From Planctomycetota bacterium (GTDB lineage Bacteria; Planctomycetota; B15-G4; SIAN01): a DNA stretch of 64,000 nucleotides. The translations under genes were made by a program, and so were the position numbers. The notes under the pieces are model-generated. The model did not search any database and had not been told where the DNA came from. It saw only the letters and a list, made by a program, of their open reading frames with translations. Location of the stretch: positions 1 through 64,000 of the forward strand of contig JAEUIC010000023.1 of assembly GCA_016795285.1 (NCBI GenBank), given 5' to 3'. Below, piece after piece: positions 16,656 through 37,680 of the stretch. The stretch's first letter is position 1. The number at the start of each line of letters is the position of its first letter.

Positions 16656-19600
16656 TCACTGCGCCGTCAGCGAGAGCGTCCACTTGTTGAGCTTGCCGGT
16701 GTCGGTCGCGGCGAGGTCGCGGACCTTCAGCGTCCAGTTGCCGGCGATGCTCTTGCCGGTGAAGGCGGAGAGCGAGCCGGCGGGCGCCGTCAGGTCGGGG
16801 TACTCGGTCTGGAGGTTGTCGGTCGCGCCGCCGGTCCGATTGTGCAGCAGCACCGTCGTCCCGTCGGGCGCGATCAGCGACACCTCGAGATCGCCCTTGT
16901 AGGTGTGGGTGATGTCGACCCGCACCTTCACGCTGGCGACCGTCCCGGTCTGGCTGTACGTGATCGGGCTCGACACGCCGGTCGTGTTGTTGTCGGGGAT
17001 CGAGAGGTTCGGCGAGACGGAGGCCTCGCCGTTGAAGGTGATCGTCCACGAGCCGAGCGTGCCCGTGTCGGTCGCCGCGAGGTCGCGGACCTTCACGCTC
17101 CAGTTGCCCGCCGTGTTCTTGCCGTTGAAGGCCGAGAGCGCCGCCGCCGGCGTGGTGACGATGGCGAACGTCGTCTTGAGGTTGTCGGTCGAGCCGCCGG
17201 TCCGGTTGTGCACGATCACTGTCGTCCCGTCCGGCCCGATCAGCGACACCTCGAGGTCGCCCTTGTAGGTGTGGGTGATGTCGGTGGTCAGCGCGATCGA
17301 CGACACCGTCAGGCTGTTGGGCACGTTGATGGTGCTGGTGACGCCGGTCGTGTTGTTGTCCGGGATCGCGACGTTCGGCGCGACGGTGAAGGTCTTCACC
17401 GGGTTGCCGCCGCCGCCCGCCGAGTTGATGACCAGCTGCACCGTCGTCGAGTGGACGAGGCTGCCGCTGGTGCCGGTGATCGTCACCGTGTGGGTGCCGA
17501 CCGTCGCCGTCGCCGTCGTGGTGACCGTCAGCGTCGAGCTGCCGTTCGCCGCGATCGGGTTGGGCGAGAAGCTGTAGCTGACGCCGCTGATCACCGGCGA
17601 GGCCGACAGCGTGACGCTGCCGCCGAAGCCGTTGCTGGGCGTGCTGGTCGCCGTGTAGCTGGTCGACTGCCCCTGCGTGATCGTCTGCGAAGCGGGCGTC
17701 GCGGAGAGGGAGAAGTCGGGCGTCGGCGCGCCCGCCGTCGCGTTGTAGACCACCAGCGCGAAGTCCTGGTCGGTGGTGTCGGCGTTGCCCGGCACGCCGT
17801 CGCCCGCGATGTTGGTCGCGCGCACGGTGACCGAGATCGCGCCGGTCGTGCCGGCCGGCAGGAAGACGCTCTCCACGTTGTTGCGCACGTCAGCGGTGCC
17901 GCCCGTGATCGAGCCGCCGCCGGTGAAGACGTTGCCGCGGTAGAGCGTGCCGTTGACCGTCACCTCGAGGTCGAGGTTGTTGACGTAGGCGTTGCCGGTG
18001 GTCGGGCCCGGCGCATCGGTCCACGCCAGCGTCACGCGCACCGGCTGGGTCGAGGTCGAGATGTTGCCGGTCGCCGTGTAGGTCGCGCCGGTCGCGCCGA
18101 GCACCTGCGTCTCGTCGACGGTGATCCGCCCGGTCGTGTCGAACGTGCGGCCGAGGTCGACGCGGCCGTAGCCCTGGTTGTTGGAGGGCAGCGTGTCGTT
18201 CGCGCCGACGCCGGTCATGTAGGCCGTCGTCGAGGTGAGCCACGCCTTCTGCATCGCCGGGCTCGGCGCCGGCAGGCCGTTGTTGAGGAACCACTGGCGC
18301 AGCAGCGCGCTGGCGCCGGCGATGGCGGGCGTCGAGTGGCTGGTGCCGGACGACCACGCGTAGAGCGTCTGCCCGGTCGGCCAGTACTGGTTGCAGACGC
18401 CCGAGCCGTTGTAGCCCACCGCACGGCTGGCGGCGCCCTCGATGTGGGTGCCGGGCGCCATGATGTCGGGCTTCTTGCGCGAGTCGGAGGTCGGGCCGCG
18501 CGACGAGAAGCTGATGATGTCCTTCGCGTTGTCGGCGCCGGTGTTGCCGATGGCGCATCCATCGGTGCCGGTCATCCGGTAGTTCTCCGACGCGCCGACC
18601 GTGAAGACGTTCTTCGCGGTGCCCGGCGGGTGGATCGTCGAGGCGCCCGAGCCGTCGTTGCCCGCGGCGAAGACGATCGCCATCGCCTGGTTGCCGGCCG
18701 TCCCGCTCACCGCATCGCGCACCGCGGCGTCATGCGCCTGGCTGTCGCTGTTGTAGGTGGTGCCGCTCGTGTAGCCCCACGAGTTCGACGAGATGCGCGC
18801 GCCGCCGTTCCACGCGTTCGCCATGCGGGTCGGCGTCGACTGGTTGAAGACGCCCGCGCCCGCGTTGGAGAAGACCTTCGAGTTGCCGATCTTCACCCAC
18901 GGCGCGATGCCGAGCCCGTAGTTGTAGCCGCTCGCGTCCTCGTAGGCCGTGCCGGCGAGATTGTTGAATCCGCCGATGATCGACGCGTTGATGTTGCCGT
19001 GGCCCGCCTGGCTGTCGCCGAGCGCGTCGCCTGAGTAGTTGTTCGAGTAGACGAAGCGGCTGGCGCCGGTCGAGACGCCGTCGACGCGGTACTCGACGTT
19101 GACGTCGGTGAGGCTCCCCTTGTCGACGCCGTCATCCACGACGTCGACCGCGAAGCTGAACGGGTTGGCGCCGGCGCCCGGGAAACCGAGCCCCTGCAGC
19201 CAGCTCAGGTAACCCGGCCCGGTCGGCTGGGTCCCCGCCGCGTTCAGGTTGCCGGCCATGATCTGGCCTTGCGCCTCGTCGAACAGCATCGCGTCGAGCT
19301 TCGGCTCGACCGCGAAGACGTGGGTGTCGCGCGCCAGCGCCAGCGCCATCGCGCCGCTCGTGTAGAGCTCGACGTTGATGTAGTCGAGCACGCGCCACGG
19401 CTCGCACAGCGACTGCTCGCGTGCGACCAGGCGATCGACGAACTCCTGCCCTTCGGCGTCGGCGATCACCTGCACGATGATCCGCTGCAGCGCGTTCTCG
19501 AGCAGGAACGGCGGGCGCAGCTCGGGACGGAGCTTGAAGGCCGGCTCGTAGGTCGAGATCGAGAGGAGCCAGTCGTTCACCCGCAGCTTGCCGAGCGCCC

Positions 19601-20261
19601 CTTCGGAGAGCGGGTCGGTGACCACCACGTAGGCGTTGTTCGGCAGGTAGGAGACGACGAAGGCGCCCGTCGCGCGCAGCTCATCGAGCCACGCGTCCTT
19701 CACCGGGCCGTCGAACTGGACGATCCGCAGCCGCCGCTCGCCGTCGGCCGGCGGCTCGACCGGACCGCGCAGATCCTCGCGGATCGACGCGAGGCGCGAG
19801 CGCGTGCCGAGGCGATCGGCGCCGTCCAGCACGAAGCCGTTCACCGGGATCAGCGTCTGCTCGTCGGCGAGCTCTGCGCCCGCGTCGAGCCACTGCGCCA
19901 GCGTCCGGTCGAGCGAGGTGTCGACCAGCGCGTAGGCGAAGGAGCCGTACTCCTCCAGCCGCTCGACCGCGATGCTCTCGGCCAGATGCGCCCGCGCGGC
20001 CGACTCGGTCGGCACCAGCAGGCGGTGGAAGTGGCCCGGCGCCACGTACCCCTCGGGCAGCGCGCCGGCGACGGTCGACTGCGTCGCGCCGTCCTCGGAA
20101 TCGACCCCGACCGCCGCCTCCTGCGCGGGACTCAGCGCTTGGAGCGGCCGCGGCAGCGGCGGCGGCTTCGAACCCAGCAACGGCGCGGCCCCGAGGGCCA
20201 GCAGCGCTGGAATGACCAGCATTCGCGGATCGCGACGCATCTCTTCCTCCCGAGTAGGCAA
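16656..20261 (-). CDS. Secreted subtilisin-like serine protease (S8 family) with two C-terminal proprotein-convertase P-domains
   Basis: Catalytic motifs VDDGVD, GHGNINAS and GTSHSTPAIAGA, followed by two tandem P-domain repeats (ITHTYKGDLEVSLI.PDGTTV..HNRTGG.TDNL ... DLAATDTG.L..WT). Visibly lower GC than neighbouring genes. Confidence 0.85.
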   Translation of the reverse strand: MPTREEEMRRDPRMLVIPALLALGAAPLLGSKPPPLPRPLQALSPAQEAAVGVDSEDGATQSTVAGALPEGYVAPGHFHRLLVPTESAARAHLAESIAVERLEEYGSFAYALVDTSLDRTLAQWLDAGAELADEQTLIPVNGFVLDGADRLGTRSRLASIREDLRGPVEPPADGERRLRIVQFDGPVKDAWLDELRATGAFVVSYLPNNAYVVVTDPLSEGALGKLRVNDWLLSISTYEPAFKLRPELRPPFLLENALQRIIVQVIADAEGQEFVDRLVAREQSLCEPWRVLDYINVELYTSGAMALALARDTHVFAVEPKLDAMLFDEAQGQIMAGNLNAAGTQPTGPGYLSWLQGLGFPGAGANPFSFAVDVVDDGVDKGSLTDVNVEYRVDGVSTGASRFVYSNNYSGDALGDSQAGHGNINASIIGGFNNLAGTAYEDASGYNYGLGIAPWVKIGNSKVFSNAGAGVFNQSTPTRMANAWNGGARISSNSWGYTSGTTYNSDSQAHDAAVRDAVSGTAGNQAMAIVFAAGNDGSGASTIHPPGTAKNVFTVGASENYRMTGTDGCAIGNTGADNAKDIISFSSRGPTSDSRKKPDIMAPGTHIEGAASRAVGYNGSGVCNQYWPTGQTLYAWSSGTSHSTPAIAGASALLRQWFLNNGLPAPSPAMQKAWLTSTTAYMTGVGANDTLPSNNQGYGRVDLGRTFDTTGRITVDETQVLGATGATYTATGNISTSTQPVRVTLAWTDAPGPTTGNAYVNNLDLEVTVNGTLYRGNVFTGGGSITGGTADVRNNVESVFLPAGTTGAISVTVRATNIAGDGVPGNADTTDQDFALVVYNATAGAPTPDFSLSATPASQTITQGQSTSYTATSTPSNGFGGSVTLSASPVISGVSYSFSPNPIAANGSSTLTVTTTATATVGTHTVTITGTSGSLVHSTTVQLVINSAGGGGNPVKTFTVAPNVAIPDNNTTGVTSTINVPNSLTVSSIALTTDITHTYKGDLEVSLIGPDGTTVIVHNRTGGSTDNLKTTFAIVTTPAAALSAFNGKNTAGNWSVKVRDLAATDTGTLGSWTITFNGEASVSPNLSIPDNNTTGVSSPITYSQTGTVASVKVRVDITHTYKGDLEVSLIAPDGTTVLLHNRTGGATDNLQTEYPDLTAPAGSLSAFTGKSIAGNWTLKVRDLAATDTGKLNKWTLSLTAQ
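16680..17410. repeat. Tandem direct repeat of about 366 bp (two units, about 85% identical) inside the S8 protease gene, encoding the duplicated P-domain
   Basis: Sequence 16715-16925 closely matches 17081-17300. The shared segment GTCGCGGACCTTCA..CCAGTTGCC ... ATCAGCGACACCTCGAG.TCGCCCTTGTAGGTGTGGGTGATGTC occurs in both. Confidence 0.8.
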
Positions 20262-20520
20262 CCATTCCGGGTCGCAGTCCGTGACGGACGCGACCGATCC
20301 GCCGCCGTCTTCCCGGGCGGCAGCGAACGACGAAGCGGACGCTAGCCGCCGCCGTCACGCGAAGGAACGAGCCGCTGCACGCGCGAAGGTTCCATCGCGG
20401 ACGAGTCGCGCGACCCTTTTCGCGGTGGCGGCGCGCGACGAGCGTGCGGATCGTCGCGCCGCCGGATTCACCGTCTACTCCTCGGTGGCCCAGCGCCCCG
20501 CTCGATGCGAAGTTGCCGGC

Positions 20521-21609
20521 ATGAAGCGCTCACGAAGCATGGCCCCCGTGGCCCCGCCCCTCCCAACCCTCCCGCCGCGCGCGGCGCTGCTGCGCGCGGT
20601 GGCTGCCCGCGACGCGAGCTTCGACGGGCTCGTCTACTTCGCGGTGAAGACCACCGGGATCTTCTGCCGGCCAGGCTGCCCCGCGCGCACGCCGCGGCCC
20701 GACCACGTCGACTTCTTCGCGACCGCCCGCGAGGCGAGCTTCGCCGGCTACCGCCCCTGCCTGCGCTGCCGGCCGCTCGAGCCGCGCGACGCGCCGCCGG
20801 CCTGGCTCGCGCCGTTGCTCTCCGCGCTGGAGTCCGAGCCGCAGCGGCGCTGGCGCGATGCCGATCTGCGCGCGCGCCGCCTCGACCCGGCGCGCGTGCG
20901 CCGCTGGTTCCTCCGCCAGCACGGGATGACCTTCCAAGCCTACTCGCGTGCGCGAAGGCTCGGGACCGCGCTGGCGGAGCTTCGGCGCGGCCAGAAGCTC
21001 GACGCCGTCGCGCTCGACCACGGCTTCGAATCGCACAGCGGCTTCCGCGACGCCTTCGCGCGGTGGTTCGGCGCCCCGCCCGGCCGCGCGCGCCGCGCCG
21101 ATTGCATCACCTTCGCGTGGATCGAGAGCCCGCTCGGACCGTTGATCGCCGCTGCCGTCGACGAGGGGCTCTGCCTGCTCGAGTTCACCGATCGGCGCAT
21201 GCTCGAAGCGCAGCTCACCCGCCTGCGCCGCCGCATCGATCGCCCGGCGCTCGAAGGCGACCACCCCCACCTCGCGCAGCTGCGCCGCGAACTCGCCGAC
21301 TTCTTCGCCGGACGGCGCACCCGCTTCGACGTGCCGCTCTACGCCCCCGGCAGCGACTTCGAGCAGCGCGTCTGGCAGGAGCTGCAGCGCATCCCGTGCG
21401 GCGCGACGCGCAGCTACGTCGAGCTCGCGCGCGCGATCGGCATCCCGAAGGCGGCGCGCGCCGTCGGCCGCGCCAACGGCATGAACCGCGTCGCCATCGT
21501 CATCCCGTGCCACCGCGTCATCCGCGACGACGGCACGCTCGGCGGCTACGGCGGCGGCAAGTGGCGCAAGGAGCGGCTGCTGGCGCTCGAGCGGGGGGAA
21601 GCCGGCTGA
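20521..21609 (+). CDS. ada: Bifunctional Ada: methylphosphotriester-DNA methyltransferase / AraC-type regulator / O6-methylguanine-DNA methyltransferase
   Basis: N-terminal Ada zinc domain (FCRPGCPAR), AraC HTH region, and C-terminal MGMT active site IPCHRVI. Start MKRSRSMAP at 20521. Confidence 0.85.
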   Translation: MKRSRSMAPVAPPLPTLPPRAALLRAVAARDASFDGLVYFAVKTTGIFCRPGCPARTPRPDHVDFFATAREASFAGYRPCLRCRPLEPRDAPPAWLAPLLSALESEPQRRWRDADLRARRLDPARVRRWFLRQHGMTFQAYSRARRLGTALAELRRGQKLDAVALDHGFESHSGFRDAFARWFGAPPGRARRADCITFAWIESPLGPLIAAAVDEGLCLLEFTDRRMLEAQLTRLRRRIDRPALEGDHPHLAQLRRELADFFAGRRTRFDVPLYAPGSDFEQRVWQELQRIPCGATRSYVELARAIGIPKAARAVGRANGMNRVAIVIPCHRVIRDDGTLGGYGGGKWRKERLLALERGEAG

Positions 21610-21627: not shown

Positions 21628-23100
21628 CTACAGCAGCGTCCAGACCAGCACGCCCACCAGCAGCGGATAGAGCAGCATCGACGGCCAGCCGAACCGCGGA
21701 CCGCGGTAGAGGCGCGCTTCGTTGGCGCGGGCGACGACCCGCGCGGCCATCTCACCGAGGTGCGGTGCATCGGAGGTCGGCGCCTTCAGTTCGACGGTGT
21801 TGCCCGAGCTGGCGCTGACGTGCCACGGAGTTCGTTCCGGACCGAGGTACGTCAACGGTCCAACGCGCTCCACGGCGATCGACTGCTCCTCGAGCGTCCG
21901 CTCCAGCAGGCGCACCGTGGTTGCATCGTCGAGGCCGACGATCACTCTGGAGACATGGTCGCGCGGCCACCACCAGCGAGTCGTGATGACGTAGACCACG
22001 ACCACCACGATGGGTTGGCCGAGCCCCCACCAGAAGTCATGGCCGAGCGAACCGCGCCAATCGCCGAGTCGCAGGCAGAGAGCGGCAAGCGAGTCGTCAG
22101 CGAAGATCAGGAACATCGGCACCAGCGGCCAGACGAGGTCGCGCGCGCGCGCCGCCGGCAGCAACTCCACGCGGCGGCGGAACCAACGCCGCCATTCCTT
22201 CACGCTCATGAGGCAGCAGTACGCCAGCAGGACCACCCACCAGGAGTTATCGATCCAGCCCGCCGGCCACTGCCTTCGCTCGGGAGGCGGCGCGACCAGC
22301 GCGAAGTGGCTCGCGTCGAAGGTGCGGTCGAACCGCGTCTCGATCTGCAGCAGGAGGTGATCGGGCCAGTCGCGGTCGCGCCGCGCTTCGACGATCTCGC
22401 AGTGCCGCACGGCCGCGTCCTGCGGATCGATCCAGAGCGTCACCGCGCGATGCGGCTGTTCCAGCTGGAGCCGCTGCACCGATCGCCCGTCCCACTGGAC
22501 CTCCGCCACCGCGCTCCGCGGGGTGCCAGCGAGCAGCAGCATCGGCGTCGGCCGCCCCGGCGGCACATCGCCGCCGCCCGGCTCGAGCAGCTCGAGCAGC
22601 GCGCGCGGCAGCTCCGGATCGCCGGCGTCGAGCGCGTCGTCGAGATCGGCGCAGACTTGCGGCTGCGAGCGGTGCCCCGCCCAGCGCTGCAGGGCATCGG
22701 GTGCGCCGTCGCCGCGATCGACGGCCACGAACTTCCCTTCCTCGCTCTCGCCATCGCGCGAATCGAGCGCGACGAAGAGGCGGCCGCCCCGCTCGAAGCG
22801 GATCGTCAGCGACTGCTCCACGCGTTCCCGCAGCTCGTCGCCCTCATGGGTGCGCAAGTCAGCCGCGACGATCAACTCGGCCCGCTCGCACTCGCCGTAG
22901 CGCTGCCGCACCCGCTCGACCAGCGCGACGGCGTCGGTCGGCGCAGAGTCGATCGTTGCAGCGCCGGTCGGCGCGGCCTCCTGCAGCACAGCGCTCGCTC
23001 TCGCCATCGTCGCCGACGTCGCTGGCGTCGCCGGCGCCGCCGGCGCCGCCACGGTGATGGTGACCGCCGCGAGCAGCAGTGCGTTCCGCAGCGCACTCAT
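21628..23100 (-). CDS. Hypothetical exported protein with a C-terminal polytopic membrane region (491 aa)
   Basis: Signal peptide (MSALRNALLLAAVTITVAA), a soluble domain, then Trp-rich TM segments (WWVVLLAYCCLM, IVVVVVYVITTRWWW). Its start overlaps the upstream stop as ATGA. Only the C-terminal 491 aa of the giant ORF 21628-25992 is credible. Confidence 0.5.
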   Translation of the reverse strand: MSALRNALLLAAVTITVAAPAAPATPATSATMARASAVLQEAAPTGAATIDSAPTDAVALVERVRQRYGECERAELIVAADLRTHEGDELRERVEQSLTIRFERGGRLFVALDSRDGESEEGKFVAVDRGDGAPDALQRWAGHRSQPQVCADLDDALDAGDPELPRALLELLEPGGGDVPPGRPTPMLLLAGTPRSAVAEVQWDGRSVQRLQLEQPHRAVTLWIDPQDAAVRHCEIVEARRDRDWPDHLLLQIETRFDRTFDASHFALVAPPPERRQWPAGWIDNSWWVVLLAYCCLMSVKEWRRWFRRRVELLPAARARDLVWPLVPMFLIFADDSLAALCLRLGDWRGSLGHDFWWGLGQPIVVVVVYVITTRWWWPRDHVSRVIVGLDDATTVRLLERTLEEQSIAVERVGPLTYLGPERTPWHVSASSGNTVELKAPTSDAPHLGEMAARVVARANEARLYRGPRFGWPSMLLYPLLVGVLVWTLL

Positions 23101-23750
23101 GTGCCCGCGCTCTCTTGTGCTCCGCTCTTCACCACGGTCGGCGAGAAGAAGAGCGGCTCCGCCTGCTCGACCGGCAGCGCCGCGGCGGCGCGCCGCAGCG
23201 CCGCGCCATCGCCCTTCTCGACCCGCTCGCGCACCGTGTGGCCGACGAGACCGCGCCCCCACACTTCCCAACCGCTGACCGAAAGCCCTTCCGCGTCGCA
23301 CCACTCGACGTAGCGCGCCACCTGCGACGTCGGCAGCGCGAAGCGCTGCGAATCGACCGGGGCGATCGCGGTCGCCATGAGCGAGTCGGGCAGCGGGCCG
23401 TTCGCGTAGAGATGCGTCTCCTCGCCGGCGAACGTGAAGCCGCAGCTCGGGCAGCTCGCGACGTCGGCGAGCAGCGGCTCCTTGCAAGCGAGGCAGCGTT
23501 CCGGCCCCTCCGCGATCGGCGCGTCGTCGAGCCGTCCACCGCGTGCGAGGCCGGCCAGCAGCGCGCGCGCGCGCTCCTCCTGCTCGATCGGCACGCGCAG
23601 TCGCACCTCGCCGAGGCAGCCGGCCCAGAGGTCGGTCGAGTTCGCGTGGAGCAGCTCGACGGCGATCCCTTCCGCCTCGAGCAGCGCCTTCGCGGTCGCC
23701 GCCGCCGCGTAGTGCTGGAACGAGTCGACCTGCACCTGCTCGCTCGCCAT
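23097..23750 (-). CDS. DUF2007-like putative signal-transducing protein with a Cys4 zinc ribbon
   Basis: N-terminal SFQHYAAAATAKALLEAEGIAVEL matches the DUF2007 pattern; CLACKEP...CPSCGF forms a zinc ribbon. Translationally coupled to the downstream gene. Confidence 0.5.
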   Translation of the reverse strand: MASEQVQVDSFQHYAAAATAKALLEAEGIAVELLHANSTDLWAGCLGEVRLRVPIEQEERARALLAGLARGGRLDDAPIAEGPERCLACKEPLLADVASCPSCGFTFAGEETHLYANGPLPDSLMATAIAPVDSQRFALPTSQVARYVEWCDAEGLSVSGWEVWGRGLVGHTVRERVEKGDGAALRRAAAALPVEQAEPLFFSPTVVKSGAQESAGT

Positions 23751-23771: not shown

Positions 23772-24560
23772 TCAGAGGAACTCGAGCGCGAGATTGAACA
23801 GCGCGTGCGCCAGCGCCACCACCCACAAGTTCCGCGTCACCAGCCAACCCGCGGTGAGGAGCGCGCCGAAGCCGAAGACCGCCGTGATGCCGGACGCGTC
23901 GTAGTAGACGTGGTACGACGTGAACGCGACGTTCGACAAGAGCAGCGCCACTGCCAGCGAACCGGTCGCCGCGCGCAGGCGCGTGATCAGGTAGGCGCAC
24001 ATCGCCAGCTCCTCGGCGAAGCCGTTGGCGAGGTGCGTCGCGACGATCCCCGCCACCGCGAGCGGCGCGCGCTGCACGGTCGCGAAGCCCGCGCCTTCGA
24101 GCGACTCGTCCGTCGGCGCGTCGTCGAGCCACGGCACCGACCCGCTCCACGCCCACCAGCCGCGCTGCACGGTCCCGTCGACGCCGAACAGCAGCACCAC
24201 CAGCAGCCCGATCATCAGCGCGCCGGCCACGCCCTCTTTCCAGCGCGGCCGCACGAGGCCGAGTTCGCGCCAAGCCATCCCGCCGCGGCGAGCGATGAAG
24301 AGGAGCGGGATCGCGACGTAGAGGCTGCGCAGGAGGATGCGCGCGTAGTAGGCGCTCGGCTCGATGGCGTACGGTGCGAGCCGGTAGTGCACGGCTTCGA
24401 CCAGCGCCGGCACGACGGCGATGCAGGCGACGGCCAGCAGCTCCGGAACAAGCTCCGGCCGCCGCTCCACCGCACGAGGGGGCGCGGCGGCGCGCTCCTC
24501 CACGCCGCCACGCTCCGCTGGCGCGGCGCGCGGATCGATGTGCTCCCCGATCGGCGACAT
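23772..24560 (-). CDS. CPBP-family intramembrane metalloprotease (CAAX protease / Abi-like)
   Basis: Multi-TM protein with the three CPBP motifs: FAEELAMCAYLITRL (EExxxR), TSYHVYYD (FxxxH) and HALFNLALEF (HxxxN). Confidence 0.75.
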   Translation of the reverse strand: MSPIGEHIDPRAAPAERGGVEERAAAPPRAVERRPELVPELLAVACIAVVPALVEAVHYRLAPYAIEPSAYYARILLRSLYVAIPLLFIARRGGMAWRELGLVRPRWKEGVAGALMIGLLVVLLFGVDGTVQRGWWAWSGSVPWLDDAPTDESLEGAGFATVQRAPLAVAGIVATHLANGFAEELAMCAYLITRLRAATGSLAVALLLSNVAFTSYHVYYDASGITAVFGFGALLTAGWLVTRNLWVVALAHALFNLALEFL

Positions 24561-24641: not shown

Positions 24642-27086
24642 TCAGCCGCCGTTGTCGCCGTCGTCGACCGCTTCGCCTGCGTCGCCGGTCGGTTCCGGCG
24701 GGGCGACGGACGAGCTGTCGTAGATCAGCTCGACGCCCGCGCTCGCGCCCTCGCCGCCGTCGACGGTGAAGACGGCGCCGTCGCCGAAGCTGATCGATCC
24801 GAAGTCGAAGGTGATCGTCTGGCCGCGGCGCTGCTCGTGGCACTGGGTGCAGGAGTCGGGTTCGGGGAGCGCGATCCAGGCGAGCTCCTCGCGGCGGCGC
24901 TCGGTCATCTCCAGCGCGACGACTTGCGGCAGCGGTTCGCCGTAGCGGAGGTCGAGCGCGACGGGGGCGCTCTCGTAGCCACCGCAGCGCACCGTCAGCG
25001 ACAGCTGCGCGCGCGGCAGCGGACCGATCAGGAAGGCGTCGGAGCGCTTCGCGACGACATCGAGTCCGATCGGTTCGAGCTGCGGCTCCTGCACGGCGAC
25101 GCGCAGCGCATCCTCCGCCGCACGTTCGCGATCGATCCGGTCGGGCCAAGGCGAGGCGGTCATCTCGCGGTAGATCGGGCTGCCCTCGAAGTCGGTGAGG
25201 AAGGCGTGTCGGGTCGTCGATTCGACGCGCGTCTGCAACAGCCGCATGATCTGGACGACCGCCCGCTCCTGCAGCGTGCCGTTCGCCTCGTTCTCGCCGT
25301 TGGCCATCGCCGGCAGCAGGACGAGCGGCGGGCCGACCGACGCTCGCACCGCCTCGCCCTCCGGGACGAACGTCCCTTCGGCGATCCGCTTCGCGTCGCG
25401 CTCCACGAGGAACTCGATCGGCGCGCGCTCCTCGCGGTGGAACGTCGCCCAGTCGCCGCCGAACAGCGCGCCGCGCGCGTGGCGCAGCTCGACGACGAGG
25501 TGGGTCGGTGCGCTGACGTCGAGCGCCTGCCAGGTGTAGCCGCCGCGCGCCACGTCGACGCGCACTTGCGCGACGTCGCGCCGCGCGGGATCGAAGGCGC
25601 GCAGGAAGTAGCTGCCCTCGGCCAATCCGGTGAAGCGGAAGCGGCGGGTGCGCGAGAGGGTGAACCAGGTCGGATCGTCGCCGTCCCCGCAACCGTGCTG
25701 CGGCGCGTCGTTCGACTCGGCGATCAGCTCCTCCTCCGTCGCCCGCTCCGCCGCCTGCGCCGCCGCCTGCACCGCCGCGCGGCAGTCGGCGCAGCGGCGG
25801 CGCCCGCGTCCGCGCAGCTCGACCTGCACCGGCGCGTCGTCGGGCAGATGGCGCGCGATCACCTCGCCCTCGATCACGCCGTGGCCTCGCGACAGCGCGA
25901 AGGGGCCGAGCGCGAGCTGCACCGCCGGCTCCACCGTGAAGTCGGGGAGGAGCAGCGGCTCGTAGCCGCGCGCCTCGACCAGCGCGCTCCACCGCCCCGC
26001 GGTGAGCCCGACGTCGATCGTCGCGCCGTCGCCGTGCTCCGCGAAGCGCGCGTCCGCGAGGAAGCGCACCTGCACGTCGCTGCCGATCGGCAGCCCCGAC
26101 TCCTCATCGACCAGCGTGAAGGTGACCCGCCCCGCTTGCGGCAGCTCGCTCACCGCCGCGTTCGGGTCGCCGTCGCGCTGCGCCGCCTCGCGCTGCGCTT
26201 CCGGCAGCGCCGCGTCGGCGAGGGGCGCGTGCGCGACGCTCGCCGGATCCGCGAGCGGCGCGACGCTCGGCGCCTCGACGCGCGCACCGGACCCCACCAG
26301 CGCGGGCGGCAGCCAGCTCGTGCGCGTCGAGTAACCGACGGCGACCAACGCCGCGCTCGCGAGCCCGACCGTAAGCCAACTCTTGATCGCCATGATCGAG
26401 ACTCCCGCGGCGCACGCTCCGCCGACCCACCACCCCGTGCCGCCACTCGCGTGGACGGGAACCGTGCCCGCGCTGGCAGCGCTGCCGCTCGCGCCGGCGG
26501 CGCCGACCGTGAGCTCCGCCACCGTCCGCACGCCGGCGATCGGCAGCAACAACGCGACCCAACCGTGCGCGCCGTAGCGCCGATCGAGCTCGGCGCGCAA
26601 CCGCTCGAGCCCGCGCCGCAGCCGCGCGCGCACCGTATCGGCCGGCAGCCCGACGCGCGCCGCGATCTCGCCCGGCGTGAGCCCTTCGTGGAAGCGCAGC
26701 AGCAGCGTGGTGCGCTCCGGCTCGCCCAACGCGAGGACGGCGCGCGACAGCTCCTGTTCGAGCTCGACCCGCTCCACCAGCTCCGCCGTCGACGGGAGCG
26801 CCTCGCGTTGCGCCGCGCCCCGCTCGCGCGTTCCGCGGCGCGCTTCGCTGCGCCACCACTTCGCTGCGAGCTGCCGCGTCGCCGTCGCCAGCCAGCCGCG
26901 CAGCGCGCCCGCCTCGCGCGGCGGTGCAGCGAGGCTGGCCGTCAGCACCTCCTGCGCGACGTCGTCGGCCGCCGCCGGCGCCACCAACCGCCGCGCCAGC
27001 GCGCGCACGAAGCCGCGCTGCGCCACCAGCCGTGCGGCGTGGGGCGAGAGCGGTTCGGAGGTCGGCGGGTCGGGGAAGGGGCGCAT
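24642..27086 (-). CDS. ECF sigma-70 factor fused in frame to a transmembrane segment and a large extracytoplasmic domain of about 550 aa (single 814-aa ORF)
   Basis: Region 2 (DDVAQEVLTA ... WLATATRQLA) and region 4 (LLLRFHEGLTPGEIAARVGLPADTVRARLRRGLERLR) of ECF sigma factors. Then a TM helix (MAIKSWLTVGLASAALVAVGY) with no intervening stop in this frame, then a long C-terminal domain. Could also be sigma plus anti-sigma separated by an undetected frameshift. Confidence 0.6.
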   Translation of the reverse strand: MRPFPDPPTSEPLSPHAARLVAQRGFVRALARRLVAPAAADDVAQEVLTASLAAPPREAGALRGWLATATRQLAAKWWRSEARRGTRERGAAQREALPSTAELVERVELEQELSRAVLALGEPERTTLLLRFHEGLTPGEIAARVGLPADTVRARLRRGLERLRAELDRRYGAHGWVALLLPIAGVRTVAELTVGAAGASGSAASAGTVPVHASGGTGWWVGGACAAGVSIMAIKSWLTVGLASAALVAVGYSTRTSWLPPALVGSGARVEAPSVAPLADPASVAHAPLADAALPEAQREAAQRDGDPNAAVSELPQAGRVTFTLVDEESGLPIGSDVQVRFLADARFAEHGDGATIDVGLTAGRWSALVEARGYEPLLLPDFTVEPAVQLALGPFALSRGHGVIEGEVIARHLPDDAPVQVELRGRGRRRCADCRAAVQAAAQAAERATEEELIAESNDAPQHGCGDGDDPTWFTLSRTRRFRFTGLAEGSYFLRAFDPARRDVAQVRVDVARGGYTWQALDVSAPTHLVVELRHARGALFGGDWATFHREERAPIEFLVERDAKRIAEGTFVPEGEAVRASVGPPLVLLPAMANGENEANGTLQERAVVQIMRLLQTRVESTTRHAFLTDFEGSPIYREMTASPWPDRIDRERAAEDALRVAVQEPQLEPIGLDVVAKRSDAFLIGPLPRAQLSLTVRCGGYESAPVALDLRYGEPLPQVVALEMTERRREELAWIALPEPDSCTQCHEQRRGQTITFDFGSISFGDGAVFTVDGGEGASAGVELIYDSSSVAPPEPTGDAGEAVDDGDNGG

Positions 27087-27317
27087 GGGCTCGATACGGA
27101 GTACCCACGGAGTGCGCGGGTGCGAAGGGGCCGGCCGATTTCACGCCGCGCCGCCGGTGCGGCTCCCGTGCCGTGCGGAGCGGTGCGCCGGCGCCGGGCG
27201 TTCGCGAGAAAGTCGGGCTAGACTCCCGCGCCGCTCGTACGAGTGACGCGCGCGACGACGAGGCGGCAGTGCGCCGCTCCCACCGCGCCCCTGCCGCTCG
27301 CGGAACGGAGTCCTGCG

Positions 27318-27722
27318 ATGCCACTGCTGCTGCTCGGCCCGATCGGGGCCCCGGAACTGCTGATCATCCTGATGCTCGGCCTGCTGATGTTCGGCGGCCG
27401 GCTGCCCGACGTGGCGCGCTCGCTCGGCAAGTCGGTGAACCAGTTCAAGAAGGGGCTGAAGGACCTCGACGACGACGTCGACGCCGCCGACCGCCGCAAC
27501 AGCGCGCCGACTCCCGTCACGCCGCGCGCGACGCTCGCCCCGCCCGCGCTCCACGCGCCGCTGATTGATCGCAGCGAGCCGACCGGCAGCGCCGTCGGCG
27601 CCACCGGAGGTGCCGTCGCCAACGAGGTCGCCAGCACGGCCAGCGCCGCCACGAGCGCCGCGACCGTCCCCTCGGCCGACGCGAGCAGCGCCCCGCCCGC
27701 GAGCGAGCCGCCGCGCGCCTGA
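27318..27722 (+). CDS. tatA: Sec-independent protein translocase TatA/E
   Basis: MPLLLLGPIGAPELLIILMLGLLMFGGRLPDVARSLGKSVNQFKKG: TM helix, the FGxxKLP hinge and an amphipathic helix, with an Ala/Ser/Pro-rich tail. Start at 27318. Confidence 0.8.
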   Translation: MPLLLLGPIGAPELLIILMLGLLMFGGRLPDVARSLGKSVNQFKKGLKDLDDDVDAADRRNSAPTPVTPRATLAPPALHAPLIDRSEPTGSAVGATGGAVANEVASTASAATSAATVPSADASSAPPASEPPRA

Positions 27723-27744
27723 GCTGCGAGCCCGAACCACGCGC

Positions 27745-30075
27745 TCAGTACGGGTTGGCTGGCGCGAGTTCCCATGCGTCGACGCGGCGCACCGCGGCCG
27801 CGCCGCCCCGCGTGCGCAGGAAGAGGCCGGCGCTGTCGGCGCGGGTCGGATAGACGCGCCGCGTGATCGCTTGGCGGTCGTTGGCGAAGAGCTCGACGAC
27901 GGAACGATCGACGAAGAGGCGCAGCTGCAGCGGCTCGCCGGGCGCCAGCGCGAACGGAGCGCGCTCGATCGCGCGCCGCCCGTCGCCGCCGCTGCGCGTC
28001 GAATCGAAGACCAGCTCGCCGGCGCGGGCGTCGTAGTAGAGCAGCGTCTCCTCGGCGCCGTCGGGTGACGCGCGCACGACCAGCGCGACGCGATCGGCCT
28101 CCTCGGCGGCGATCTCGACGGCGAGCTCGCACGAGGTGCCGTCCACCCCCTCGATCCGCTGGTCCACGCCGTCGCGCAGCGCGACCGCGGTCTGCGTGCG
28201 CCGCTCGCCGCGCAGCTGCTCGAGCTCCTCCACCGGCGCCTGGCGAAGCGTCCCGTCCTCGCCGAGCCAGAGCGTGCGCGGCAGGCCGTAGACGCCCGAC
28301 CAGCCGCGCGCGCGCTCCCCCTGCGGATTGTCGAGCAGCCACGCCCAGAGGAGCTGTCGGCCGCGACCGTCGATCAGCGCTTCGGGGGCGAAGAAGGTGT
28401 TGTCGACCCAGGTCATGCGCCCGTGCTGCTCGGGGTGGAAACGCTGGTCGCGGTAGGTGCCGACGTAGTACTGGCAGCCCTTGTTGTGCGAGATGAACGC
28501 GAGCAGGTGCTTGCCGCTCGGCGGCCCTCCCGCGCGGCTGCTCGGCAGCGGGAGGAACGACGGGCACATGTTGTCTTCGCTGCGGTCGGTCCACTCGGCG
28601 CGCCGCTCGTAGAAGACGTGGCGGTAGCTCCAATTCACGAGGTCGGGCGAGGTCCAGAGGTAGAGGCGATCGCCCTGGGTCTCCGGCGGCGCATCGACGG
28701 CGCGCCCGATCCGATCGAGCACCAGCAGGTTGCCGGTCAGCACGTGGTAGAGGCCGTCCTGCTTCCAGAGGTTCGACGGGTCCGCCGAGCCGAGCAGCAG
28801 CGGCCGCCCCTCCAGGTCGCGCGTCTCGGTGACGCCGAACGCCGTCGAGCGGATCACCGGATTCGCGGCGCTCTTCTGCCAGCGATCGAGGTCGCGGCTC
28901 GACGCCAGGCCGATCCCCTTCGCGCCCCAGAGCATCCAGTAGCTGAGATGCACCGTGCCGTCGTCGTCGACGAAGGCGCCGCCGCTGAAGCAGCCGTCGT
29001 CGCCGTCGCCCGGTCCGATCGCGTCGGGATGGTGGCGCCAGTGGACGAGGTCGGCGCTCGAGACGTGGCCCCACCAGAAGCCCGCGCCGCGCCGCTCGTA
29101 GAGGTACATCAGGTGGTAGCGGCCGTCGCGATGGAAGGCGCCGTTCGGGTCGCCCGGGATGCCGAGGTCTTCGGGCAGGCAGAAGTGCCAGCGCGGTCGA
29201 TGCGGGTCGGCGAGGAGGCGCTCGCGGAGGAGGCGCGTCGAGCGCAGCACGGCGTCGGGGACTGGCCCCGTCTCCGACCAGCTGCGTGGCACGGCGACCG
29301 CGCTGCGCGCCTCGTCGCCGCGCGCGCGCTGGATCACCGTCGCGCCGGCGCCGCCGAGCACGAGGCAACCGTCGGCGACCCGCGCGTCGCCCACCAGCTC
29401 GATCGTGCGGAAGCGGCCGCTCTTCTCGCGGAGCCCCTCGCCGGCGAAGTCCCACCACGCCCACGGCGCGCGCTCGCCATCGGGCGTCCCCGCGCGCAGC
29501 GCAGCGATCGCCGTCCCGGAGAGCGCCTCGGCGTAGATGCGCGCCTCGCGGATGCGACCGGTGAACGAGTGCTGCGGATCGCCCGCATCGAGGTGGCGCC
29601 GGCCGAAGAGCACGGCGCACTGCGGGCCGTAGCTCGGCGGCGCCTCGGCCGCTTCGTGCCGCGCGTAGAGCACGCCGTCGCGCCAGAGCTCGACCTCGCG
29701 ACCGCGCTGCACGAGCGCCAACTGGAGGAAGGTCGTGGGGCTCGCCGTCTCCTCCGCGTAGCTCGCCTGCTCGCGCTGCGTCCGGCGGAACCCCTCGCTC
29801 CCCGCCATCCAGCGGCGCGGCTCGATCTCGCCGAAGACGATCGCGTCGAAGCGGCCCGCCTCGTCGTCGATGGTGAACGCGCTGCCGGCGCGTTGCGCGA
29901 GGTCCGCCGGCGCGCACCAGACGACCAGCGTCCGATCGGCGAGCTGCTGCGGCGCCGCGCGCGCGAGCGCGAGGGCGGACGCCAGCACCACGACGAGGAG
30001 AGCGCGCGCGGCGCGGCGAAGGGTGTACGAGTGGAGTTGGTGCATGGGCGCGATGGTACGCGGCGCGCCGCGCAC
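27745..30075 (-). CDS. Glycoside hydrolase family 32 protein (beta-fructofuranosidase/levanase-like) with an N-terminal accessory domain
   Basis: WHFCLPEDLGIPGDPNGAFHRDGRYHLMY (the WMNDPNG-type nucleophile motif), an FSGGA region and the acid/base ECP-like motif NMCPSF. Signal-like N-terminus. 776 aa. Confidence 0.65.
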   Translation of the reverse strand: MRGAPRTIAPMHQLHSYTLRRAARALLVVVLASALALARAAPQQLADRTLVVWCAPADLAQRAGSAFTIDDEAGRFDAIVFGEIEPRRWMAGSEGFRRTQREQASYAEETASPTTFLQLALVQRGREVELWRDGVLYARHEAAEAPPSYGPQCAVLFGRRHLDAGDPQHSFTGRIREARIYAEALSGTAIAALRAGTPDGERAPWAWWDFAGEGLREKSGRFRTIELVGDARVADGCLVLGGAGATVIQRARGDEARSAVAVPRSWSETGPVPDAVLRSTRLLRERLLADPHRPRWHFCLPEDLGIPGDPNGAFHRDGRYHLMYLYERRGAGFWWGHVSSADLVHWRHHPDAIGPGDGDDGCFSGGAFVDDDGTVHLSYWMLWGAKGIGLASSRDLDRWQKSAANPVIRSTAFGVTETRDLEGRPLLLGSADPSNLWKQDGLYHVLTGNLLVLDRIGRAVDAPPETQGDRLYLWTSPDLVNWSYRHVFYERRAEWTDRSEDNMCPSFLPLPSSRAGGPPSGKHLLAFISHNKGCQYYVGTYRDQRFHPEQHGRMTWVDNTFFAPEALIDGRGRQLLWAWLLDNPQGERARGWSGVYGLPRTLWLGEDGTLRQAPVEELEQLRGERRTQTAVALRDGVDQRIEGVDGTSCELAVEIAAEEADRVALVVRASPDGAEETLLYYDARAGELVFDSTRSGGDGRRAIERAPFALAPGEPLQLRLFVDRSVVELFANDRQAITRRVYPTRADSAGLFLRTRGGAAAVRRVDAWELAPANPY

Positions 30076-30115
30076 GGCCGGTCCGCGGAACGCGTGGATC
30101 AGCGGAGCGCGTGGG

Positions 30116-30787
30116 TCAGCTGACCGCGCCGCCCGTCTCCTGCCGATCGCCGCGCGCCACCGAGAGCGCCGTCTCGATCGTCCGCACCACCGCCCGCTCC
30201 ATCAGGTCGAGCGGCAGGCCGGGAGCGCCGGGGTGGCGCGCCGCCTGCTCGTCGCTGTACGGCACGTGGACGAAGCCGGCGCGCACGTCATCGCGCCGCG
30301 AGAGCGCGTGCAGCAGCGCATAGAAGACGTGGTTGCAGACGAAGGTGCCGGCCGTCTGCGAGACGGCGGCCGGGATCGAATCGGCGCGCAGCGCATGGAC
30401 GATCGCCTTGATCGGCAGCGTCGCGAAGTAGGCGGCGGGGCCGTCGGCGACGATCGGCAGGTCGATCGGCTGCGCGCCGTAGTTGTCGGGGATGCGCGCG
30501 TCGTCGACGTTGATGGCGACCCGCTCGAGGCTGATCTCGGCGCGGCCGCCCGCCTGCCCGAGCGCCACCACCAGCTGCGGCGCCGCATCGGCCAGCGCCG
30601 CATGCAGCGCCTCGCGCGCCGCCCCGAAGCGGCACGGCAGCACGCGGCCGACCACGCGGTGGCCCGCGACGACGCGGCCGTCGAGCCGCTGCGCCAGCTC
30701 CTGCGACGGGTTGGTCGCCTCGCCGCCGAACGGCTCGAAGCCGGTCACCAGCACCGTGCCTGCTCGCTGCGTTCTGCGCGTCGCCAT
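30116..30787 (-). CDS. pcp: Pyroglutamyl-peptidase I (pyrrolidone-carboxylate peptidase)
   Basis: [17 protein letters not shown] near the N-terminus; catalytic Cys in [11 protein letters not shown]. Start chosen at MATRR (30787). Confidence 0.8.
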
Positions 30788-30823
30788 CGTCCTCGCCCTC
30801 CCGCGCGGCGCGGCCGCCACCGC

Positions 30824-31798
30824 TCAGCGGTAGACCAGCGCCCCCATCGCCATCACGTTGAAGAGCCAGCAGAGCGCCGCGAAGGGCGCCTGCACCTTCA
30901 AGATCGCGTGGCGATCGTCGAGCTCGAGCAGCACCGCCGGCACCACGTTGAAGTTGGCCGCCATCGGCGTGACCAGCGTCCCGCAGTAGCCCGAGAGCAT
31001 GCCGAACGCCCCCATGATCGCCGGGTCGCCGCCGTACTGCTGCACGATGAACGGGATGCCGATGCCCAACGTCAGCACCGGGAACGCCGCGAAGGCGTTG
31101 CCCATCAGCACCGTGAAGAGCGTCATCCCGCCGCAGTAGAGGACCACGGCCAGCAGCGGCGCGCCGTCGGGCAGCAGCTCCTTCGCGCCGCCCGCGATCA
31201 CGTCGCCGACGCCGCTCTTCGCGAAGATCCCGCCGAGCGCCGCCAGCATCTGCGGCAGGATCAGCGCCCAACCGAGCTCCTGCAGCAGCCGCCCGCCCGC
31301 TCGCAACGGCGCCCGCGGACCGGCGCGCGTGAGCGGCAGCGCCAGCAGCAAGGCCGCGACGACGCCGAGCCCGAGCGCGACCGTCGTCGCCTGCTTCGGA
31401 TCGACGAGCCGCCCGCCCTCCCACGTGATGCGCGGCAGGAGCAGCGCACCGCCCGCCGCCACCAGCGCCAGCAAGAGCGGCGGCCAGAGCAGCCGCGCGC
31501 GCAGCCGCAGCGACTCGGCGAGGCGGGCCGCGCCATCGATCGCCACGCGCCGCGGCGCGCCGACCTGCTTCGTCGCCGCCAACGCGACCAGCGCCACCAC
31601 GCAGCCGCCCACCAGCGGCGGCGGCAGCTTGCGGCCGACGAGGAACGTGAGCGCCAGCAGCGCCCAGAACGCCGCGCTGCCGATGCGGCGCGGATGGTCG
31701 CGATCGCGCGCGATCGAGAACGCGACGCACAGCAGGATCACCCCCGCCAGCGCGTGGAACGCCTCGACCGGCAGCCAAGTGGTGAGCAGCAGCGTCAC
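30824..31798 (-). CDS. DUF979-family membrane protein (pcp-associated)
   Basis: Polytopic membrane protein of 324 aa immediately upstream of pcp. GTG start at 31798, overlapping the DUF969 stop as GTGA. The Arg-rich N-terminal extension in the ORF track is an artefact. Confidence 0.55.
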   Translation of the reverse strand: MTLLLTTWLPVEAFHALAGVILLCVAFSIARDRDHPRRIGSAAFWALLALTFLVGRKLPPPLVGGCVVALVALAATKQVGAPRRVAIDGAARLAESLRLRARLLWPPLLLALVAAGGALLLPRITWEGGRLVDPKQATTVALGLGVVAALLLALPLTRAGPRAPLRAGGRLLQELGWALILPQMLAALGGIFAKSGVGDVIAGGAKELLPDGAPLLAVVLYCGGMTLFTVLMGNAFAAFPVLTLGIGIPFIVQQYGGDPAIMGAFGMLSGYCGTLVTPMAANFNVVPAVLLELDDRHAILKVQAPFAALCWLFNVMAMGALVYR

Positions 31799-32547
31799 GG
31801 CGCGCGCTCCGCGGCGGCGCGCGCGGCGTGCTGCTCGATCGCGCGATCGAGGCGGCGGAAGCGCCACGCGCCGAGCAGCAGCGCGAAGAGCGCCGTCGGC
31901 AGCCCCCACGCGCCGAGCGCCGCGACCGAGACGGCGATGCCGGCCGACTCGAAGACCCCCTTCATCAGCAGCACCGGGCCGATCGCCACCACGATGTCGT
32001 CGGCGAAGAAGTTGCCCCAGTTCTCGGCCGCCGCCGCGTGGGCGCGCAGCTCTTGGCGCAGCGGCGCCGGCAGCGGAACGGGCGGCGACGCGCGCGCGCC
32101 GCTCGCCTCCGCCGCCGCTTCCGCCATCGGCGCCACCAGCGGCCGGATCATCTGCGCATGGCCGCCGAGGTTGATCCCGAACATGCTGCTCAACTCGCGC
32201 AGCAGCTGGTAGGCCAGCAGGATGCGCCCCGCCGTCGCCTTGCCCGCCGCGCGGATCAGCGCCGCCGCGCGCTCCTGCAGGCCGTGCTCCTCGAGCAGCC
32301 CGATCAGCGGCATCAGCAGCACGATCGGCAGCGTGGTGAAGAGGTTGTCGACGAAGAGCGTGCCGATCAGCCCGAGCAGCTCGAGCGGCCCGATGCCCGC
32401 CGCGAAGCCGGTCGCCACGCCCGCCACCAGCAGCACCAGCAGCGGATGGAGGCGCAGCGCGAAGCCGGCCGCGACCACCGCGACGCCGATCAGCTTCAGC
32501 GCCTCGCGCCACGGGCCGGCCTGCGCGGGCAGCTCGGGCAGCTCCAT
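31795..32547 (-). CDS. DUF969-family membrane protein (pcp-associated)
   Basis: 250-aa polytopic membrane protein starting MELPELPAQ at 32547. Its ATG overlaps the pxpA stop (ATGA). Confidence 0.55.
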   Translation of the reverse strand: MELPELPAQAGPWREALKLIGVAVVAAGFALRLHPLLVLLVAGVATGFAAGIGPLELLGLIGTLFVDNLFTTLPIVLLMPLIGLLEEHGLQERAAALIRAAGKATAGRILLAYQLLRELSSMFGINLGGHAQMIRPLVAPMAEAAAEASGARASPPVPLPAPLRQELRAHAAAAENWGNFFADDIVVAIGPVLLMKGVFESAGIAVSVAALGAWGLPTALFALLLGAWRFRRLDRAIEQHAARAAAERAP

Positions 32548-37163: not shown

Positions 37164-37421
37164 TCACACGGTCCGCTTGCGGACGTGGGTCGGGCGCATG
37201 GCGGGGGCCTGCTTGGTGCGGCCGGCGAAGCCCTCGCGGCGAGCGGTGGCGTCGCCCTGCTTCTGCGCCTTGGCGGCTTCGTCGCCGTCGAGCGTGTCGG
37301 TCAGCGCGGCGTTCTCGGCGGCCAGCGCTTCGCCGCGCTTCGCCTCGTCCTTCGCCTCGCAGCACTTCTTGTACTTCTGCCCGGAACCACACGGGCAGGG
37401 ATCGTTGCGACCGGTCTTCAT
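37164..37421 (-). CDS. Small SEC-C motif protein
   Basis: [21 protein letters not shown] is a SEC-C metal-binding motif; 85 aa. Confidence 0.6.
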
Positions 37422-37680
37422 GGCGTCACCTCGGGAGCGGCGGGCCGGCGGCGGCGCGGCGGGATCGATCGCGGGATCGATCGCCTGCCCGCAGCGCGCT
37501 CGGCTCGGTTCAGGCCAAGAGAGTAGGCGAACATCGTCACCGCGCCCGGGGCGGAATCAACCGGGCGGCGAGGGCGGCGCGCTCGGAGCGGTCGCGCGCG
37601 GCGGGCGCGGCGGGAATATCGGACCGCGCGGCGCTCGTCTGGTGGCAGGCGACGCCCGACCCCTCCCGCGACCGGAGCCG

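Follow-up and report, generated by a model that had tools for sequence, protein, structure and literature searches.

IutY of Pseudomonas putida, a sigma factor of the extracytoplasmic function (ECF) group ECF243, has its sigma domain freed by sequential proteolysis, by Prc and then by RseP (PMC8999054). In the Planctomycetes, which have dozens of ECF sigma factors per genome, many of them with long C-terminal extensions, such extensions have been proposed to arise through duplicated sigma heads that insert into other genes (PMC7671368). One extension of this kind is the subject of the present analysis. It belongs to an 814-residue protein encoded on the minus strand at 24642-27086 of a 64,000-nucleotide stretch of a Planctomycetota genome (contig JAEUIC010000023.1, positions 1 to 64,000; hereafter the window), in which an ECF sigma head is followed by a single transmembrane (TM) helix and an exported tail. 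Comparison with homologs indicates that the tail is an exported module of wide distribution, which alternates between standing alone and being fused to a sigma head. The reading favoured here, with a probability of roughly 60%, is that of a membrane-tethered ECF sigma factor joined to this module, with two probable products from one gene and release of the head by processing, the adjacent CPBP-DUF2007 gene pair being a separate matter.

Other described systems are relevant to parts of this reading. The extension of group ECF01-Gob carries WD40 repeats. In the RsiW-PrsW-RasP pathway of Bacillus subtilis, a membrane protease cuts a single-pass anti-sigma factor at site 1, and cleavage by the site-2 protease (S2P) follows. 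Genes that yield two products through in-frame internal starts are represented by CheA (CheA-L and CheA-S), the IF2 isoforms and ClpB, in which the truncated isoform shares the C-terminal domains.

Architecture of the fusion protein

With a GC content of about 73%, the window abounds in long spurious open reading frames (ORFs), and the coding frame was therefore tested directly. The GC content at third codon positions (GC3) was 0.88-1.00 in one single frame from about 27100 to about 24640, the segment 26300-26500 included. As the signal stays in a single frame throughout, there is no frameshift. The same uninterrupted architecture was found in 13 further full-length homologs of 760-821 aa and 38-92% identity, making 14 orthologs in all, and about 70 additional Planctomycetota fusions have the plan of head, TM helix and tail in common. 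The protein belongs to a family that is widespread in this phylum. Across the fusions the heads are conserved and the tails differ. Merged genes or a frameshift were ruled out by the frame plot and the uninterrupted orthologs. A preliminary description, made from the letters of the window, had proposed a true single-ORF fusion with sigma regions 2 and 4, a TM segment and an exported domain; Pfam and NCBIfam matches, hydropathy and the orthologs bear this out.

An identical protein is deposited at NCBI, with a Planctomycetes metagenome-assembled genome (MAG) as its source. In what follows, L-numbers denote related loci that were compared with the window and P-numbers denote homologous proteins. 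P0001 is annotated to a Planctomycetes MAG, and most of the loci come from Planctomycetota or Phycisphaerales MAGs.

By its domain content the head is an ECF (group 4) sigma-70 factor, with a complete sigma2-sigma4 pair at residues ~15-172. In addition to the region 2 match listed in Table 1, curated cut-offs were exceeded by PF04545 (Sigma70_r4, residues 120-165; 38.1 bits against 24.1), PF08281 (Sigma70_r4_2; 34.3 against 25.7) and the ECF superfamily model TIGR02937 of NCBIfam (57.3 against 42.9), which confirmed the sigma regions of the preliminary description. Neither region 1.1 nor region 3 is among the Pfam matches of the fusion, and the gap between regions 2 and 4 is only ~25 residues. 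A structure model of residues 1-270 was built on 74 homologs. It has sigma2 and sigma4 with a predicted local distance difference test score (pLDDT) of 91-98, a disordered linker at 202-236 and a TM helix at about 229-257. A juxtamembrane helix is predicted at 175-184 (pLDDT ~75-92), and its W...LLP motif recurs in many distant fusions. The window holds a second ECF-type sigma head at 37804-38214 on the plus strand, inside ORF 37177-38331, which is 37% identical to residues 30-163 of the fusion head.

Hydropathy analysis gave one consistent TM candidate, at about residues 233-255, with a Kyte-Doolittle (KD) value of 1.69. Among 84 related proteins there is almost always a single hydrophobic segment 20-40 residues past sigma4, which in distant relatives is often strongly hydrophobic. 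Because headless homologs carry the same segment as an N-terminal signal anchor, the helix is predicted to be oriented N-in/C-out. A second TM helix at residues 177-195, which would leave the tail in the cytoplasm, was considered and rejected: this patch is the short conserved motif, which in P0008 comprises only ~8 residues, and a signal anchor stands directly ahead of the tail in the headless homologs. The topology suggested at the outset is in this respect upheld, with one TM helix by hydropathy and by the model and with export of the tail supported by the signal-anchored homologs.

Sigma4 and the TM helix are ~60 residues apart, of which ~45 make up the disordered Gly/Ala/Ser linker, and no Pfam or NCBIfam match to an anti-sigma domain, whether ASD, ZAS or FecR-like, was obtained between them. 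The protein had been taken at first for an anti-sigma factor attached to its own sigma factor. This view could not be maintained, as there is no recognisable anti-sigma domain and the tail is a free-standing exported module that is commoner without a sigma head.

Tail homologs with and without a sigma head

The head and the tail were queried separately by tblastn. In L006/7, L011 and L012, as well as in L075, L079, L080, L083 and L085, a headless copy of the tail immediately follows the fusion gene; in L009 and L010 the headless tail is the only copy. Headless proteins start with signal anchors (MNSKRTLLAAGAALAIVGAAGWLV..., MALKTWILGG... and MRMRSWWLVGLAG...) directly ahead of the homologous domain and keep the CxxCH motif. 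These signal-anchored copies are the best evidence from which we infer an extracytoplasmic position of the tail.

A tail-only profile was run against 1.84 billion representatives and returned 175 clusters, of which the best 150 were classified. Among these, about 46 were sigma-fused and about 104 were headless with an N-terminal signal anchor. On this census the tail is a pre-existing independent exported module, about twice as often free-standing as sigma-fused. The headless P0085 tail and the fused P0004 tail are 71% identical and are mutual nearest relatives, and the gain or loss of the head was therefore recent. In L009 an in-frame linker remnant (…CAAAGVTI-M, 4492-4534) of the fused form lies upstream of the headless start, right after a stop codon. 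It is consistent with recent loss of a sigma head. Taken together, the census of fused and headless forms and the recent gain or loss of heads fit the origin by head insertion proposed in PMC7671368.

In the clade at 35-40% identity the fusion is followed by a headless tail paralog (~35% identical, CxxCH kept), at 10352-12067 in L006, ~9800-11521 in L012 and ~1650-3368 in L011, and L080 contains a tandem array of headless tail genes. The tandem headless paralogs suggest that tails work as pairs or oligomers. In L067 (418-3103) the headless P0085 gene immediately follows msrB and msrA, with which it shares the strand, and adjoins a gene with a faint Cytochrom_C match. From the msrB-msrA context, a link to oxidative stress is possible.

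The tail was modelled as three beta-sandwiches with generic transthyretin-like matches; WD40 repeats gave no match in it. The CxxCH motif near its end is present in 14/14 orthologs and in 0/70 distant fusions. Of the 36 family representatives whose alignment extends to the profile's C-terminal end, 35 have it, often 7-14 residues from the C-terminus. No cytochrome family of Pfam matched the tail, and around CxxCH the model has a pLDDT below 55. The invariant CxxCH, CxxC, Cys and His of the exported domain suggest, as a working hypothesis, haem, metal or redox chemistry, in which the invariant H536 and H550 are candidate haem ligands only.

A probable in-frame start ahead of the transmembrane helix

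Within the otherwise variable linker, G228 is nearly invariant and stands four residues before M232. Free-standing headless genes begin exactly at the position equivalent to M232. The arrangement (A/G)GGAG-N8-ATG is found here in five fused orthologs (the window, L001, L005, L006 and L012), which use GGA for the glycine despite a GC3 of 0.85-0.93. A sixth, L003, has AGGAG-N11-ATG with the residues G-x-x-x-x-M and was left out of the codon test.

For the codon test, the first locus set provided 55 distinct fused ORFs, 20 of them with G-x-x-x-M just before the TM helix, and the expected GGA counts were derived from the glycine codon usage of each gene itself. GGA was present at 16 of the 20 sites, against 3.1 expected, and 0 of 500,000 simulations reached 16. 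In an independent metagenome set, 7 of 12 new sites had GGA (1.9 expected, P ~7e-4), which brings both sets together to 23/32 sites against ~5 expected. A Shine-Dalgarno (SD)-like element precedes the pre-TM ATG in 16 loci, compared with 13% (36/270) of the other internal ATGs of the same genes. As a positive control, the true start codons of headless genes were found to be preceded by this element (L009 and L068, gcAGGAGtgacgatcATG; L010, gcAGGAGtcgtgacgATG; L067, gcTGGAGactcgcccATG). At the sequence level, these codon statistics support the view that selection preserves, within the fused genes, the translation start that belongs to the module itself. Since the internal element is conserved and headless genes start at it, the locus is probably a two-product one: besides the full-length fusion, the gene probably also makes a headless TM-tail protein, M232-G814, of 583 aa.

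The full-length start, M1, has no SD-like sequence in the window, whereas the CPBP and DUF2007 starts have one. Upstream of it, a promoter-like motif of the form C(T/A)TCGC-N17-GTACT(CCGTA) is shared by the window, L001, L003, L005 and the headless L010, with the 17-nt spacing fixed and the spacer variable; the window copy reads CTTCGC-N17-GTACTCCGTA. Among the first 68 loci the motif occurs only at those genes. As it ends 8 nt before the SD-less M1, the transcript may have a very short leader or none. A search for a regulon was made in the window, where ~1.2 chance matches are expected at one mismatch or less. The only other exact match (52965-52992) is intragenic, was judged to be probably due to chance and was rejected.

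The CPBP neighbour and its context

The gene of the CPBP/Rce1-like protein lies 81 bp downstream of the fusion on the same strand, ahead of genes for a DUF2007/Zn-ribbon protein and a polytopic membrane protein. These neighbours are as earlier described, with a PF02517 match for the first, a match just below the cut-off for the second and four hydrophobic segments, one of them N-terminal, for the third. The last protein (21628-23100) had no Pfam or NCBIfam match, and weak relatives of it were found only in L005 and L076. The window CPBP protein has the catalytic Glu, His and Asn motifs, in the form of EELAMC, FTSYH and HALFN. In EELAMC a Cys replaces the Arg of EExxxR, which all five compared orthologs retain. 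Over the first ~40 codons of this gene GC3 favours another frame, and the true start may be further downstream.

CPBP and PrsW-like proteases had been named together as known site-1 proteases for anti-sigma factors. For PrsW this is correct, as it is known to make the site-1 cut in an anti-sigma factor, but we know of no CPBP protein proper with that role.

The co-occurrence of the CPBP gene with the fusion was examined by tblastn and by a hidden Markov model (HMM) scan of all loci. The CPBP-DUF2007 pair is near a tail gene in six distinct loci, all of one subclade (the window, L003/L074, L005, L009, L071 and L076). In L009 it stands directly downstream of the headless tail; in L005 it is 3.6 kb off, with an opposite-strand gene in between, and in L076 it is 5.6 kb off. 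A T6SS_Tle1-like (alpha/beta hydrolase) gene lies between the fusion or tail gene and the pair in L003 (10343-11227) and L071 (1538-2404), and L074 is arranged as L003, with the pair after the inserted gene. CPBP is usually partnered with DUF2007, the two ORFs often overlapping or abutting, with L009 as an exception.

The pair was not found within 10 kb of the 57% ortholog (L001/L008), though the ada-like and S8 peptidase genes on either side have been kept there, nor near the tail gene in the 35-40% clade (L006/7, L011 and L012) or in L067, L075 and L077-L080. A CPBP profile HMM had no match in 34 distant fusion loci (539 kb) and matched in only 2 of 80 metagenome loci, which had been collected by a scan with the full-length alignment, the tail-only profile having given nothing there. 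L069/L070 have the pair beside ada with no tail gene nearby; they are from the same sample as the headless P0085, which sits elsewhere. On these comparisons the CPBP adjacency is local synteny within one subclade, and it tracks the tail/TM module if anything, not the sigma head. Much of it is due to regional synteny. The genes that are syntenic across related MAGs (window 16656-21609 and 27243-32512) encode a P-domain S8 peptidase, an Ada-like regulator, TatA, a pyroglutamyl peptidase (Peptidase_C15) and DUF969/DUF979 proteins. A GH32 + Laminin_G_3 gene (27745-30075) occupies in the window the place where relatives have a sulfatase.

The preliminary description had seen in the fusion and its CPBP neighbour a self-contained module for regulated intramembrane proteolysis (RIP), and had named the lack of a conserved association in related genomes as what would refute it. 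The association proved not to be conserved, the pair being confined to one subclade, missing at L001/L008 and present without the fusion in L069/L070, and on the description's own terms the self-contained module is not supported. CPBP was also rejected as a general partner, since the scan of all loci was negative outside the one subclade.

Table 1. Positions of the fusion gene, its parts and its neighbours in the window
Feature	Coordinates	Strand	Support
Promoter-like bipartite motif, ends 8 nt before ATG	27095..27127	-	conserved upstream of orthologs
Full-length fusion gene: ECF sigma head, juxtamembrane helix, linker, one TM helix, exported tail; 814 aa	24642..27086	-	
Sigma-70 region 2, residues 24-84	26835..27017	-	PF04542, 27.6 bits against cut-off of 24; pLDDT 91-98
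Sigma-70 region 4, residues 111-165	26592..26756	-	PF04545, PF08281, TIGR02937
Conserved juxtamembrane helix, invariant W176, L180, L181, P182	26535..26564	-	invariant in 14 orthologs
Gly/Ala/Ser-rich linker, variable length, mostly disordered	26394..26534	-	pLDDT < 50 at residues 202-236
Internal Shine-Dalgarno-like GGGAG (rare Gly228 codon GGA and next G)	26402..26406	-	
Internal in-frame ATG, M232 nearly invariant, 8 nt past GGGAG; predicted start of 583-aa headless product	26391..26393	-	
Single TM helix, ~residues 233-255, predicted N-in/C-out	26322..26390	-	hydropathy, orthologs, model
Tail beta-sandwich domain 1, residues 319-425	25812..26132	-	
Invariant C432-x-x-C435; invariant C466 further downstream	25782..25793	-	orthologs
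Tail beta-sandwich domain 2, residues 464-574, invariant H536 and H550	25365..25697	-	orthologs, model
Tail beta-sandwich domain 3, residues 649-729	24900..25142	-	weak CarboxypepD_reg match at 684-725; model
Invariant C746-T-Q-C749-H750 (CxxCH), candidate c-type haem attachment or metal site	24837..24851	-	
CPBP/Rce1-like intramembrane protease	23772..24560	-	PF02517, E 9e-14
DUF2007 and Zn-ribbon protein, cytoplasmic, usual CPBP partner	23097..23750	-	25.4 bits, just below cut-off of 25.7
490-aa membrane protein, start overlaps DUF2007 stop by 4 nt	21628..23100	-	

Discussion

In the reading that we favour, the sigma head would be inactive through its tethering to the inner membrane and not through an anti-sigma domain. 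It would be released on processing of the tail and TM helix, by a site-1 cut and then an S2P-type intramembrane cut, as for IutY; by analogy with that protein (PMC8999054), release by regulated proteolysis is a reasonable proposal. What is sensed would be the state of the periplasmic tail, possibly with respect to haem, redox or metals. The full-length protein would be translated from the SD-less start and the headless TM-tail protein from the internal (A/G)GGAG-N8-ATG, and the CPBP-DUF2007 pair would have no dedicated part in this, being a syntenic module in its own right. The type II orientation of the TM helix and its richness in Gly and Ala would presumably suit S2P cleavage. As a more tentative extension, in which we place distinctly less confidence, the weakly translated full-length product (SD-less, possibly leaderless) and the well-translated headless product might co-assemble in the membrane, so that a sigma-tagged minority would report on the fate of an abundant periplasmic protein, for instance its haem or redox state or its turnover. 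The tandem headless paralogs of other genomes would then co-assemble too.

Several points weigh against the favoured reading. Both proteolytic release and internal initiation are steps that we infer, the former by analogy and the latter from sequence. The in-frame SD-like element could act as a translational pause site instead of a start. The GGA counts include kin (for example L020/L026, L006/L012 and window/L001), and there are fewer independent events than counts. The TM helix is only moderately hydrophobic in the ortholog group of the fusion (KD 1.5-2.0), and haem binding is read from the CxxCH motif, with no cytochrome match and a local model of low confidence.

A different outcome would be a sigma head that is active while tethered, in the manner of ToxR or CadC, the linker giving it reach and the tail modulating it allosterically or by oligomerisation, with no proteolysis. 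To our knowledge there is no precedent for a membrane-anchored sigma factor working in holoenzyme, and we consider this unlikely, even though head and TM helix are joined by a disordered linker whose length varies (45-60 residues), no anti-sigma domain would need to be removed, and detergent-soluble (membrane) fractions have yielded planctomycete ECF sigma factors (PMC8567305). IutY, the only fused ECF sigma factor that has been characterised, is moreover released by Prc and RseP (PMC8999054). Somewhat less likely still is the earlier proposal that the adjacent CPBP protein is a dedicated protease freeing the sigma head, with sigma factor, CPBP and DUF2007 as a self-contained RIP cassette. It draws on the adjacency in the window and L009, on distances of 1-6 kb in L003, L005, L071 and L076, and on the presence of the catalytic Glu, His and Asn motifs. 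However, the window copy has Cys for the Arg of EExxxR, and the gene is missing at the 57% ortholog, where ada and S8 are kept, as well as from 34 distant loci, 78/80 metagenome loci and L006/7, L011, L012, L067, L075 and L077-L080. The pair occurs without a tail gene in L069/L070 and is separated by an opposite-strand gene in L005, and the association goes with the tail/TM module and local synteny and is not tied to the sigma head.

More doubtful again is the fortuitous insertion of a duplicated sigma head, at the 5' end of a gene for a membrane protein, with no regulatory coupling, in which case the tail would function independently and the internal SD-ATG would be a relic start. The tail family is mostly headless, gain or loss of the head is recent, the internal SD-ATG coincides with the starts of headless genes, and the origin would be that proposed in PMC7671368. 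Nevertheless, the fused state, the W...LLP motif and the GGA at a synonymous site have persisted in orthologs with as little as 38% identity and in many distant fusions whose tails are unrelated. Upkeep over such a range speaks for selection and not for a decaying relic. Least credible by far is an artefact of assembly or annotation, in which a frameshift or an overlooked stop joined a sigma gene to a membrane-protein gene. Spurious long ORFs are common in high-GC MAGs such as the source, but GC3 stays in one frame and the ORF is continuous in at least 14 independent assemblies and in ~46 representative clusters.

If both products of the membrane-tethered fusion are made, the signalling of such fusions would differ from the anti-sigma paradigm. 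If the co-assembly of the two products is also true, it would be a form of ECF control that does without an anti-sigma domain as well as without a dedicated partner gene, and it would be common to many planctomycetal sigma fusions. A tempting but unsupported inference, that the CPBP neighbour is part of the system, has been removed.

Comparison with described systems

The architecture had been called unusual in the preliminary description. It is not categorically new, as membrane-spanning sigma fusions and planctomycetal ECF sigma factors with long extensions have been described before (PMC8999054, PMC7671368, PMC7826278), including IutY/ECF243, ECF52/53/48, ECF01-Gob and the variable planctomycetal extensions. 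In the searchable literature, no description was found of the tail family with its invariant CxxCH or of the duality of fused and free-standing forms with tandem paralogs, and nothing specific was found on internal starts in sigma fusions or on haem-linked ECF extensions.

IutY resembles the fusion in having an N-terminal ECF sigma domain, a single TM helix and a periplasmic domain in one polypeptide. It differs in its FecR-type anti-sigma portion and in its TonB-dependent cell-surface signalling, whereas the fusion has neither an anti-sigma domain nor a TonB receptor context, and its tail consists of three transthyretin-like domains and the CxxCH motif. The actinobacterial groups ECF52, ECF53 and ECF48 (for example SCO4117) likewise have C-terminal extensions with TM helices and extracytoplasmic domains, for which proteolytic activation has been proposed. 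They belong to another phylum and have a zinc-finger (ZAS-like) element, and SCO4117 has a carbohydrate-binding domain; the fusion has no ZAS motif between sigma4 and the TM helix. Closer by phylum are the planctomycetal ECF sigma factors with extensions (Pinto and da Fonseca 2020), in which conserved sigma2/sigma4 heads are found on long unrelated C-terminal extensions. ECF01-Gob is cited as a group with a C-terminal extension, and differs from the fusion in that the tail of the latter is without a WD40 match. What sets the present family apart from these proteins is its invariant CxxCH, its tandem headless paralogs and the internal SD-ATG that it has kept, none of which is mentioned in the literature searched.

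The RsiW-PrsW-RasP pathway is the analogy behind the CPBP proposal. PrsW is not in the PF02517 family, however, and the sigma and anti-sigma factors are separate proteins in that pathway; the CPBP gene studied here also fails the co-occurrence test. With CheA, IF2 and ClpB the fusion gene has in common an in-frame SD element and start inside the ORF. It would differ from them in that its predicted short form would lose the whole transcription-factor part.

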